Source of the DNA: Bacteroidota bacterium
GTDB taxonomy: Bacteria > Bacteroidota > Bacteroidia > Bacteroidales > Prolixibacteraceae
Direction: 5' to 3'
DNA length: 64,000 bases
Assembly (NCBI GenBank): GCA_039714235.1
Contig: JBDLJS010000001.1
Location: 17,595 to 81,594 of the forward strand
Shown: piece after piece, positions 33,154 through 36,518 of the stretch
Numbering within the stretch: position 1 is the first letter of the stretch
Layout: every line of letters starts with the position of its first letter
Notes under the pieces: model-generated
Databases searched by the model: none
Seen by the model: only the letters and a program-made list of their open reading frames with translations
Told to the model about the DNA's origin: nothing
Position numbers and translations under genes: made by a program

Positions 33154-35367
33154 CTAAGTTAATATTTTCCATCTTTTAGAAGTCAATCTGTTCAGCGCGT
33201 CAGCAAAAGTTGAATAATGAGCTGCTCCCACTTCATTTCCAGTTGACATTAACCGGTTATCGTTACCAACGATTGCACCACCCGACACACCTGCATCTCT
33301 TGCCATTTGGTCGTGGGTTGCTCTTGAACCTGCCGGCCTGTTGTAACCACTACCAACTTCTGCGTACTCATCGCCAAGCCCAAAAACATGTCCTAATTCG
33401 TGAGCAAACACATTTTGTCCACCTCTACCTTGTCTGATCACCTCAATATCAACTCTCCTGTAATCAGATGGATCGTGAGTTTCAGGATTTGTGGCTAAAT
33501 CACTCTCAGCACTCGTATCTGAATCATTTGTTCTTCCCACTGTCCATACATTGGTACTAATATTAGAATTCATTATTCTGTCGTCGATATACGAATCAAC
33601 TGTATCTATTCTCCTGTTTACCAACGACCTGTTATAGGCGGTTGTTCCCGGGGCCGATGCATATCCCTCCAAATTGACATCAATTCCTCTATCCTCATTA
33701 TCGAGCAATATCATGGGGTCGCTGAAAAAGCTATCCAGTTGTGCCCTAACCGAATCAGAAAGGTCACTTTCGTTATGTTCGAAATATATCCAGGAATAAA
33801 ATGCCATATTCGACGGATCATCACTCCTGTTACTTTCAAGCGACATAAGGTTATTAAATCCCTGAGGTGCAGAACTTCTACTTCCAGGATCATTACCTAA
33901 ATATGATCTGACACCTTGTACCATACCACTGGTTACTTTAGCTCCTGTTGCTGCATTATGTTCGGCAATAATTCTTTGAATATTAGCCACATCATCTGCA
34001 CTTGGTTGTTTTACAATTTCAACCTGTACATGGTCGCTTGTTGATTCGTCTGTAACTGTAAACAGATTTAAAAAACCACCTTCTCTTGTATTATGCTGTG
34101 CATCGCCTTGTGTTATTTCCAGATTAATTCTTGGAGTTGCCGTTACGCTTTCCCAGCCTGATTCGTCAACCTGGAACGACATGCCGGTATCTTGCCACAA
34201 ACTTGCTGCAGCCAGCAAATTCTGTTTAAACCTAATCATATGAATCTGTTTCTCCTCATCATTCCATTGAAAATAAGGTAAAATCCTCGACTGTACATCA
34301 GCCGGAAGACTGTTCATAATTGGGATAAAACCCGCCTGGTTCATAAAATGGTTTGGAGACGAATAGGTTCCGGCATTATTTTCCAGGGTATTTTTAAACC
34401 TAACTTTACCCCGAACTGTAATATTTAGCCGACTCTGGGCTGGTAGATATTTTGCCTCGAATCCAGAACCTGAAATTTCGTTCCGAGTATAAGTAAGAGG
34501 GCCATAGTTTCTGCTTTTAAAATCAGTAATTTGTTCTGCGGTACTTGCCCATGGCCACGTCCATCGTTGTACCTGATTTTGTGTTGTACTTGCCCCCTGC
34601 TGCACCGTATGCACCAACTCATGTGCCAACAGTTTATTTCCGTTTTGCGAACCGGGCCGGTATTTCCCTTCATTAAAATAAATATGGTTACCCGATGTAA
34701 ATGCCTTGGCTCCCAATTCCTGGTTCATTTGTATAGCAGCACTATCAGTATGTATTTTTATCCTGCTAAAATCAGCTCCAAAACTATTCTCCATTTGTGC
34801 TCTAGTATCGGAATCCAGCGAATGGCCATTTCCTTTGCTGTCTTTTAAATTTGTTTCTGTGGTTTGTTGCGTCTCTGCCACTTCAGATTCAGCCTTAGGC
34901 ATTAGTTCTTCCTCTTCTTCCTCCAGAGGTTGGGACTGAAGCATCTCCTCTTCTTCTTCGAGTGGTTGCGTTTGCAACATCTCTTCTTCCTCTGGTATAT
35001 CTTGCTTCTGAATGATTGTTTCCAATAATTTGGATTGAGCTGCTTCCTCTTCCTCTTCCTGCTTTTGAACAATTAACTTAGCCTGCATCTCTTCCTCTTC
35101 TTCCTCTTGCTTTTGCACCAATGGAGTTATATTTTCTGCCAATGGTTTTGTTTGCAGGACAGGTGGCTGTGATGGGGTGAAAAAGGACTGATTATCGGTT
35201 TGCCTATTAATAACTTGATCGGCCACGCGGTCGGCCTCCCGTTCGTATTCGTCGTCGGGTTGTCCAACTTTTAATTTAGGTTGTGCTGTAAAAAAATCGC
35301 CAGAACCTGAAAAAAAAAGGTTGCTGCTTTTACTGCTTTTATCTGACTTACTTACTTTTGTCTTCAT
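33154..35367 (-). CDS. eCIS-associated DUF4157 protein with C-terminal metallopeptidase and nested OmpA-like domain (candidate effector)
   Basis: DUF4157: MENSFGADFSRIKIHTD...AKAFT.G.HIYF..G.Y......LLAHELVHTVQQ. OmpA-like: IYFEHNESDL...LEGYAS.PG...YNRSL..RR..V...RRVDI. Second zinc site: HELGHVFGLGDEY. Confidence 0.85.
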   Translation of the reverse strand: MKTKVSKSDKSSKSSNLFFSGSGDFFTAQPKLKVGQPDDEYEREADRVADQVINRQTDNQSFFTPSQPPVLQTKPLAENITPLVQKQEEEEEEMQAKLIVQKQEEEEEAAQSKLLETIIQKQDIPEEEEMLQTQPLEEEEEMLQSQPLEEEEEELMPKAESEVAETQQTTETNLKDSKGNGHSLDSDTRAQMENSFGADFSRIKIHTDSAAIQMNQELGAKAFTSGNHIYFNEGKYRPGSQNGNKLLAHELVHTVQQGASTTQNQVQRWTWPWASTAEQITDFKSRNYGPLTYTRNEISGSGFEAKYLPAQSRLNITVRGKVRFKNTLENNAGTYSSPNHFMNQAGFIPIMNSLPADVQSRILPYFQWNDEEKQIHMIRFKQNLLAAASLWQDTGMSFQVDESGWESVTATPRINLEITQGDAQHNTREGGFLNLFTVTDESTSDHVQVEIVKQPSADDVANIQRIIAEHNAATGAKVTSGMVQGVRSYLGNDPGSRSSAPQGFNNLMSLESNRSDDPSNMAFYSWIYFEHNESDLSDSVRAQLDSFFSDPMILLDNEDRGIDVNLEGYASAPGTTAYNRSLVNRRIDTVDSYIDDRIMNSNISTNVWTVGRTNDSDTSAESDLATNPETHDPSDYRRVDIEVIRQGRGGQNVFAHELGHVFGLGDEYAEVGSGYNRPAGSRATHDQMARDAGVSGGAIVGNDNRLMSTGNEVGAAHYSTFADALNRLTSKRWKILT

Positions 35368-35399
35368 CGTTTTACATCTCTACGAATAATAAATTATCT

Positions 35400-36518
35400 T
35401 TATTCAGCATGAATCGTAGTGTCACTGCTTTGTTGTTCAACAGCTTCAGGTCCATCAGCATGTTGTTCTTCATCTTCACAATCAAGATCAATATTTGTAT
35501 GAAACGGATCGAGGGCATCGCTTAATTCCTGTGCGCTTTGCCTTCGCTCTGCCTCAATTTTATCATGAAATGGCTGTAATGCTTCCGATCCCCAATCGCT
35601 TCTGCAAATTTTTAACTGAAATTGTCTTTGTACTGTTCCATCATAAGTATTAAATGCGTCTACATGCTCCTGTTCGTGAGGCGCTAAAACATCCCGTATC
35701 CATTGTTCAACCCGCTGTATCTGACAAGGACTTAAATGATCATATTCACTTCTTGATGGAAGAGTGACTACAGGATTGGCATTAAAAACGAGAGTATGTG
35801 TTCCTGACACATTTAAACATTCATCATCCGAACATCCTTCACAATCAGTTGCCGGTGTTACTCTTATATTTGTCGTATTACCTATTCCTCCATCAAAATT
35901 TGGTTCTGTAGTCCCATGCAGCGAAATGCTCACCGGGCCGTCATCCCCAAATACTATAAAGTTAACAGGCGCCCCTGTTGTTGAAATATTTGGCAGAGGG
36001 CTTATTTCCCTTTCTAAAAAAGAATTATTAAAAACATTTTCTGTTTTTTGCTGAATCCAGACAGATTCCTGCTGAGGTTTTGGCATTACTTCCTCCTCCT
36101 CTTCCTGTGCCTGCAACATTTCTTCCTCCTCTGGTATTTCTTGCTTCTGAATGGTTGTTTCCAATAATTTGGGCTGTGCCTCTTCCTCCTCTTCTTCCTG
36201 TTTCTGAACTGTCTCTAACCTCTTTGCCTGAGCTTCTTCCTCCTCTTCTTCCTGTTTTTGTACCAATGGTGTTATTGTTTCTGCCAATGGTTTTGTTTGC
36301 AGAACAGATGACTGTGCCGGTGCGAAAAAAGTCTGGTTTTCGGCTTGCCTGCTTATTACCTGATTGGCCACCCTATCGGCTTCCTGCTCGTATTGATCAT
36401 TTGGTTGTCCGACTTTTAACTTGGGCTGTGCCGTGAAAAAAACAGAATCTTTGCTTCTTGAAAAAGAAGAATTACTGTAATTTGATTTATTTTCAGATTT
36501 ATTAATTTTTGTCTTCAT
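35400..36518 (-). CDS. Leader-bearing candidate eCIS cargo with an HExxH (HEQEH) domain and no DUF4157
   Basis: First ~147 aa are paralogous to the N-terminus of 33154-35367. The C-terminal domain contains WIRDVLAPHEQEHVDAF and several Cys. Confidence 0.7.
   Translation of the reverse strand: MKTKINKSENKSNYSNSSFSRSKDSVFFTAQPKLKVGQPNDQYEQEADRVANQVISRQAENQTFFAPAQSSVLQTKPLAETITPLVQKQEEEEEEAQAKRLETVQKQEEEEEEAQPKLLETTIQKQEIPEEEEMLQAQEEEEEVMPKPQQESVWIQQKTENVFNNSFLEREISPLPNISTTGAPVNFIVFGDDGPVSISLHGTTEPNFDGGIGNTTNIRVTPATDCEGCSDDECLNVSGTHTLVFNANPVVTLPSRSEYDHLSPCQIQRVEQWIRDVLAPHEQEHVDAFNTYDGTVQRQFQLKICRSDWGSEALQPFHDKIEAERRQSAQELSDALDPFHTNIDLDCEDEEQHADGPEAVEQQSSDTTIHAE

Follow-up and report, generated by a model that had tools for sequence, protein, structure and literature searches.

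A conserved N-terminal leader common to two candidate cargo genes, one lacking DUF4157, in an AlgoCIS-type extracellular contractile injection system cluster

Work is under way to engineer particles of extracellular contractile injection systems (eCISs) for protein delivery, and which part of a cargo protein is needed for its loading is a practical question. This question is raised by two adjacent genes in a 64,000-nucleotide stretch of DNA (the window) from a Bacteroidota bacterium of the family Prolixibacteraceae (GenBank assembly GCA_039714235.1, contig JBDLJS010000001.1, positions 17,595 to 81,594). The encoded proteins, of 372 and 737 amino acids (aa), have ~150 N-terminal residues in common, termed here the leader. 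In the longer protein, the leader is followed by the domain DUF4157, whereas in the shorter one it is joined directly to an unrelated C-terminal domain (CTD). Is it the leader or DUF4157 that marks these proteins for loading? We estimate a probability of roughly 0.75 that both genes encode cargo of an eCIS of the type found in Algoriphagus (AlgoCIS), that their common leader is read by an AAA+ ATPase, and that DUF4157 is an optional cassette.

Cargo gene 1 (positions 35400 to 36518, on the minus strand like all window features described here) is an open reading frame (ORF) for the 372-aa protein, in which the leader runs straight into a CTD with an HExxH motif and conserved cysteines. Cargo gene 2 (33154 to 35367) encodes the 737-aa protein, in which the leader is followed by DUF4157, an OmpA-like region that scores below the Pfam threshold, and a C-terminal HExxH region. 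The two proteins align by BLASTP at their N-termini only, with identities at 108 of 166 positions (65%, E = 3e-46), and the 5' ends of their genes are 78% identical at the DNA level. The coordinates of the two ORFs, their N-terminal identity and the consensus string of the duplicated leader, as given in the original prediction, all agree with our alignment. The assignment of DUF4157 to one protein only is likewise upheld, as residues 184–259 of the 737-aa protein (34591 to 34818) belong to the DUF4157/eCIS_core family (PF13699, E = 9.6e-34), whereas the 372-aa protein falls outside it, with no match to any Pfam family, PF13699 included, or to NCBIfam. The HExxH motif of the 372-aa protein reads HEQEH and is located in a domain unrelated to DUF4157. 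As had also been noticed, acidic repeats differ in copy number, with four blocks in the 372-aa protein and five in the leader of the 737-aa protein (residues 1 to ~165; 34873 to 35367; from BLASTP, alignment and repeat analysis), and the difference corresponds to one additional 36-nt tandem repeat unit at 34910–34993. The bacterium's own genome (4.05 Mb, 90% complete) holds two copies of the leader and one of DUF4157. Searches of this genome with the leader protein and with a leader profile found no orphan cargo elsewhere, and a third leader match has an E-value of 0.13 and an internal stop.

Within a complete eCIS cluster, recognised by Pfam searches, that runs from 55856 to 31378, the two genes have the tape-measure gene on one side and the AAA+ gene on the other. 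This is the position expected of AlgoCIS-type (Cgo-like) cargo. The CIS tape-measure protein (TMP) is encoded upstream of the cargo genes (36938 to 38470; PF19268, E = 3.6e-111). The presumed cargo loader is an Alg15-type AAA+ ATPase of 438 aa (31378 to 32694; PF00004) that is 60% identical over 434 aa to its counterpart in Algoriphagus machipongonensis. The cluster is syntenic with the Algoriphagus locus (L091), which encodes, in order, a protein of 933 aa, a 1443-aa PKD protein, the TMP, proteins of 498 and 1228 aa, a tetratricopeptide repeat (TPR) protein and an AAA+ protein of 435 aa. The 498-aa and 1228-aa proteins match the published sizes of the AlgoCIS cargos Cgo1 and Cgo2 (bioRxiv 10.64898/2026.05.27.728243). 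We take them to be these cargos on the basis of size, and the 435-aa protein to be Alg15 on the basis of size and position.

The leader of the 372-aa protein is 41% identical over 133 aa to the 498-aa Algoriphagus protein (BLASTP, E = 2e-14), and a hidden Markov model (HMM) built from the leaders of the window and of a syntenic locus (L005) matches both Algoriphagus cargos (E = 5e-17 and 8e-15). Judged by these alignments, the leader and each N-terminal domain (NTD) in the proteins identified as Cgo1 and Cgo2 are homologous. Loading of Cgo1 and Cgo2 is known from experiment, whereas that of the window proteins is predicted by homology. In AlgoCIS, Cgo1 or Cgo2 lacking the NTD is not loaded, whereas deletion of DUF4157, which is described as optional, leaves loading intact. 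Loading further requires the ATPase activity of Alg15, and beta-lactamase and Cre can be loaded by means of the NTD plus DUF4157 (bioRxiv 10.64898/2026.05.27.728243, the PROCIS preprint). These deletion results, together with the comparative evidence presented below, support the earlier proposal that the leader, and not DUF4157, is the portable targeting unit.

We propose that each cargo begins with a loading leader of three parts, which would comprise a basic N-terminus, a helical motif of the EADRVA type (motif A), and a second motif (motif B) followed by acidic repeats. By homology, recognition of the leader of both cargos most likely falls to the adjacent Alg15-type AAA+ ATPase, which would thread the unfolded proteins into the tube lumen. 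DUF4157 would then be an optional cassette that separates leader and effector domain. A natural version without this cassette would be the 372-aa protein, whose leader runs straight into a putative HExxH effector domain that would depend on zinc. From this protein we infer that leader-only cargo is evolutionarily stable.

The first part of the leader, as delimited by alignment of the 372-aa protein (aa 1–28; 36435 to 36518), is basic, rich in Ser and Asn, and ends in FF. It is kept among close relatives only and is modelled by AlphaFold2 (AF2) with a pLDDT of ~45–52. Motif A (aa 29–56; 36351 to 36434) has the pattern Q-P-K-L-x-V-G-x-P-x-D-x-Y-E-x-E-A-D-R-V-A-x-x-V, and motif B (aa 73–88; 36255 to 36302) has the pattern [IV]-Q-x-K-P-L-A-x-x-I-T-P-L-V-Q-K. 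The acidic QKQ-E(5-6) repeat region (aa 89–146; 36081 to 36254) was delimited from the sequence, from BLASTP alignments and from a comparison of non-synonymous (pN) and synonymous (pS) divergence. Among 155 leaders from 81 loci, motif A has near-invariant columns and the consensus [IV]Q[PA]KLx[VI]GxP[GN]D[KQ]YExEADx[VM]A[DN]xV[VM]. The conserved motif B consensus in this set is [IV]QxKP[LI]AxxI[TS]P[LV][VI]Q[RK], preceded by a variable linker and followed by acidic repeats. Motif A patterns were used to pick 80 of the genome loci, and its invariance there is therefore partly circular. Motif B played no part in this selection and the profile search described next used no pattern, such that both are free of circularity. 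Helices are predicted by AF2 at residues 42–60, within motif A, and at residues 87–113, within the first acidic blocks, and low pLDDT values outside these two helices suggest that the leader is mostly disordered.

A profile of the first 88 residues, searched against 1.84 billion representative proteins without a word filter, yielded 8066 clusters at E ≤ 0.001 and 531 clusters at E ≤ 1e-10. Loci encoding the leader, from a scan of one genome per species, were found in Bacteroidota, Cyanobacteria, several proteobacterial classes, Planctomycetes, Aminicenantes, Lentisphaerota, Anaerolineae, Ignavibacteria and two methanogen lineages, and the closest named relative for the leader is Draconibacterium aestuarii, which probably places the genome near that group. 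A homologue of the TMP or of the Alg15-type AAA+ ATPase is encoded within 10 kb at 60 of 85 loci. The original description of the leader as a low-complexity sequence consequently needs revision. Acidic repeats do follow motif B, but the leader also holds two strongly conserved motifs that are found in thousands of proteins. The repeats are missing from the syntenic 290-aa orthologue (P0002, locus L005) and are therefore dispensable for this type of cargo. In some giant proteins (P0121, P0170 and P0173), the leader motif is internal, for example at residues 1441–1477 of a 3374-aa protein, or is present in up to five copies. Such arrangements are not explained by a purely N-terminal address.

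To what extent can the leader and DUF4157 be separated? The ORFs called in 86 loci were searched with HMMs of the leader, of DUF4157 and of the CTD. DUF4157 is present in 152 of the 169 leader-bearing ORFs and absent from the other 17. Proteins with a leader but no DUF4157, which the original prediction had suggested looking for in other genomes, are thus represented, and approximately 10–11 of these 17 ORFs are intact. Nine of the intact ORFs were searched with Pfam, and all nine are PF13699-negative, their leader running into OmpA, DUF5995, helical or unassigned regions. Conversely, DUF4157 occurs without the leader in 11 ORFs. More than one leader-bearing gene is present in 50 of 81 loci. 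The count of 17 is inflated by split genes in three loci (L062 at 9941–12245, L054 and L055), where abutting leader-only and DUF4157-only ORFs resemble one cargo gene divided by a frameshift or an assembly error.

The CTD to which the leader is joined in the 372-aa protein spans aa 170–350 (35469 to 36011). A homology search identified ~50 proteins sharing residues ~170–350. In a set of 55 homologues, residues H281, E282 and H285 of the HExxH motif (aa 281–285; 35664–35678) are invariant, C226, C229 and C234 are near-invariant, and a DPFH motif is conserved. AF2 models the domain with pLDDT > 90. Searches with the predicted fold gave no significant match in the PDB (best E = 0.15) or in BFVD (best E = 0.013, TM < 0.1), and neither a sequence-profile search of the PDB nor a search of NCBIfam yielded a match. 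The possibility that the CTD is a diverged DUF4157 was rejected, as hhalign assigns a probability of 0.8% to the alignment of the two families. Sub-threshold matches to DUF922 (PF06037) were obtained for 14 of the 55 family members, the window protein not among them, with a best E-value of 1.1e-4 (22.7 bits versus the Pfam threshold of 27). DUF922 is a predicted zincin-like metallopeptidase (Lenart et al. 2013, PMC3650047) and resembles the CTD in carrying HExxH on a long helix. The CTD family differs in that all of its matches to DUF922 are below the Pfam threshold, with no structural match found. Our best guess, and only a guess, is that the CTD is a metallopeptidase-type effector that is putatively zinc-dependent.

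Homologues of the CTD occur in four architectures. The leader is joined to the CTD without acidic repeats in locus L005, which encodes, in order, the TMP, the 290-aa protein, a 740-aa DUF4157 cargo, a 147-aa protein and the AAA+ protein, whereas the leader, acidic repeats and CTD are all present in P0009. In L094, which belongs to a genome within the same family, DUF4157 is placed between the leader and the CTD, and the gene order is TMP, 396-aa protein and AAA+. In a related arrangement, in Aquimarina (L008), DUF4157 and then the CTD follow a short, basic N-terminal stretch devoid of motif A. Finally, at the end of three eCIS loci with a long AAA+ protein (L006, L009 and L010), the CTD follows an N-terminus that is basic and bears the element [FY]-Y/S-x-x-G-P, and DUF4157 is absent. 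The DUF4157-bearing cargo of these loci has the same N-terminal element. This last architecture is an independent repeat, in another eCIS lineage, of a leader common to the cargos of one system regardless of whether DUF4157 is present. By these sequence comparisons, the CTD represents an uncatalogued HExxH/Cys family that is modular, occurring with or without DUF4157 and behind two different leaders. Only 13 of 81 sampled family genomes, the window's own genome included, have any match. In L009 and L010, the AAA+ protein is ~727 aa long and a pentapeptide-repeat protein is encoded immediately upstream of the CTD gene.

These features make the locus a source of a natural minimal cargo, consisting of a leader and an effector without DUF4157. 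Relatives that carry the same effector domain with DUF4157 or with a different leader provide a comparison set for leader sufficiency and for the contribution of DUF4157, and motifs A and B supply defined residues for mutation.

The likeness of the two leaders might carry no functional meaning if it had merely arisen from a recent event of tandem duplication or of gene conversion. The two genes are adjacent and co-oriented, their 5' ends are similar in DNA, as noted above, and, within each genome, the leader of the short cargo is closer at the amino-acid level to the leader of its neighbour than to that of its orthologue. The original prediction had pointed out the similarity in DNA and had suggested leader duplication as a source of new effectors. 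Against a recent event, pS across the leader paralogues overall is 0.45–0.96 versus a pN of 0.03–0.2. For motif A these values are 0.957 (pS) and 0.096 (pN), for motif B 0.54 and 0.027, and for the acidic region 0.61 and 0.107. Divided by codons, pS is 0.70 for codons 1–72 and 0.65 for codons 73–146, with pN at 0.08–0.2. Near-saturation of synonymous sites combined with few non-synonymous changes indicates that the duplication is old and that the likeness has been held by selection on the protein, and the similarity in DNA thus reflects constraint at the protein level. The leader motifs are, in addition, conserved across phyla. A recent duplication or conversion event is ruled out by this synonymous saturation, and we give the idea almost no credence. 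In 29 of 123 cases over all loci, the nearest leader comes from within the locus itself. This closeness within genomes fits constraint by a partner shared within each system, or occasional homogenisation. A different concern is that the 372-aa gene is the remnant of a leader–DUF4157–CTD gene that lost DUF4157 by deletion, and that its product is no longer functional cargo, being unloaded or decaying. The full three-part architecture does exist in a relative (L094), and the rarity of matches, at 13 of 81 family genomes, is in line with such a loss. Against this, the 372-aa ORF is intact and has every family-invariant residue of the CTD, and the architecture without DUF4157 has been retained at the matching position in L005 and is found in clusters P0003 and P0009 as well. 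Furthermore, the leader is strongly constrained, and pN/pS is 0.31 between the CTD orthologues of the window and L005. Intact homologues of the same architecture and purifying selection on the CTD therefore make it very improbable that the gene is a pseudogene, an alternative left standing by the original prediction. For comparison, the long cargo of the window and its L005 counterpart (1849–4071) are 73% identical over the leader and DUF4157 but 37% identical over the C-terminal 440 aa (33154–34590), where pN/pS is 0.67. Such divergence in the effector part is polymorphic-toxin-like, as expected. Between the same two genomes, pS for the CTD is 0.47, which is lower than the value of 0.78 for the AAA+ orthologues, a hint that the effector cassette was exchanged more recently or that its codons are constrained.

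The main rival to a leader read by the AAA+ ATPase holds that motifs A and B serve the DUF4157 metallopeptidase, for instance as a docking site or a cleavage site in the release of the toxin. In this scenario, the basic extreme N-terminus would be the only loading determinant, and DUF4157-less cargo would be processed in trans by its neighbour. The co-occurrence of DUF4157 in 152 of the 169 leader-bearing ORFs is in accord with this, as is the fact that, for at least nine of the ~11 leader-only ORFs that are intact, the locus also holds a gene for both leader and DUF4157. Moreover, DUF4157 was proposed to be an autoproteolytic releasing peptidase (Zhang et al. 2012, PMC3482391) that may act in cis or in trans (Danov et al. 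2024), motif B is repeated within the acidic region of some proteins, and the Aquimarina cargo (L008) combines a basic N-terminus and DUF4157 without motif A. However, AlgoCIS cargos without DUF4157 are loaded, and the NTD whose deletion abolishes loading holds both motifs. No DUF4157 gene lies within 10 kb of two leader-only ORFs (L035 and L088), and a cleavage site in motif A or B is hypothetical. We consider this rival unlikely. Our preferred reading, in which the leader directs loading and DUF4157 is optional, has weaknesses of its own. Functional coupling of the two elements is possible given that 90% of leader-bearing ORFs carry DUF4157 too, and the expression of the 372-aa protein and its association with particles are predictions. 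The enzymatic nature of the CTD is suggested only by its conserved HExxH and by weak DUF922 matches. Published heterologous loading used the NTD and DUF4157 jointly, and the sufficiency of the NTD by itself is a prediction. The AlgoCIS experiments speak for the NTD as a whole and not for any particular part of the leader (bioRxiv 10.64898/2026.05.27.728243).

A broader and more tentative idea is that motifs A and B might constitute a sequence-specific, near-universal address of the eCIS clade that carries DUF4157, which Alg15-type AAA+ ATPases would read or DUF4157 would cleave, either in cis or in trans. We regard this as possible, with the odds somewhat against it. According to the literature, the loading signals of eCISs have no known conserved sequence (Danov et al. 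2024; bioRxiv 10.64898/2026.05.27.728243), and the signals are reported to have no similarity between systems (bioRxiv 10.64898/2026.05.27.728243). A text search of the literature returned no paper containing the strings of motif A or B. If true, a near-universal address would contrast with these published statements, and the sufficiency of the address by itself would be demonstrated by natural cargos without DUF4157.

How does the locus differ from systems already described? Like Cgo1 and Cgo2 of AlgoCIS (Xu et al. 2022, PMC8894135; PROCIS preprint), the window proteins are encoded in the order TMP, cargo, cargo, AAA+, next to an AAA+ gene whose product is 60% identical to that of Algoriphagus. 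They likewise pair different C-termini with a shared, homologous leader comprising motif A, motif B and acidic repeats. Unlike Cgo1 and Cgo2, which both carry DUF4157, the 372-aa protein lacks it and ends in another, uncatalogued CTD family. The 737-aa protein is a typical member of the PVC-metallopeptidase/DUF4157 polymorphic toxins (Zhang et al. 2012, PMC3482391; Geller et al. 2021, PMC8213781). In those descriptions DUF4157 is the constant element, whereas here the upstream leader is constant and DUF4157 can be absent. The leader also resembles the signal peptides of PVC and Afp that are read by Pvc15 (Jiang et al. 2022; Kreitz et al. 2023; PMC11495950), which are N-terminal, hydrophilic and largely disordered tags that depend on the AAA+ ATPase of the operon. 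The two are set apart, by description only, in that the literature reports no conserved sequence for the PVC and Afp signals, whereas the window leader has two strongly conserved motifs. The principle of targeting by a leader is already published for AlgoCIS, and the gain from this locus is incremental. What is new is modest, and consists of a naturally occurring member that has an AlgoCIS-type leader but no DUF4157, an uncatalogued family of HExxH effectors with and without DUF4157 behind two leaders, and two widely conserved motifs within the leader.

The remainder of the cluster is that of an eCIS. The structural genes (38471 to 55856), assigned by Pfam, encode in order a Pvc16_N cap protein, the sheath, two gp19-type tube proteins, a CIS_tube protein, an OB-domain spike protein, gp25 and baseplate J. 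These are followed by a 930-aa baseplate protein and a 1402-aa PKD protein, and the gene order is the same as in the AlgoCIS locus. Thereafter come the TMP gene (CIS_TMP), an ORF of 128 aa, the two cargo genes, an ORF of 135 aa and the AAA+ gene. The 128-aa ORF (36548–36934) encodes a very basic protein with sub-threshold SH3 matches (24 bits versus 27). The 419-nt segment that holds it, between the tape-measure gene and cargo gene 1, has no counterpart in L005, where the gap is 3 nt, or in the AlgoCIS locus, and no second copy in its own genome. Downstream of the AAA+ gene, a gene of the endonuclease/exonuclease/phosphatase family (29626–30588; PF03372, E = 3e-11) encodes a protein without the leader. 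The 135-aa ORF (32716 to 33123) lies between cargo gene 2 and the AAA+ gene, where AlgoCIS has its TPR protein and where L005 has a 147-aa ORF (4089–4532) whose product is 23% identical. The protein encoded at this position, between the long cargo and the AAA+ ATPase, could be an adaptor, a chaperone or an immunity protein.

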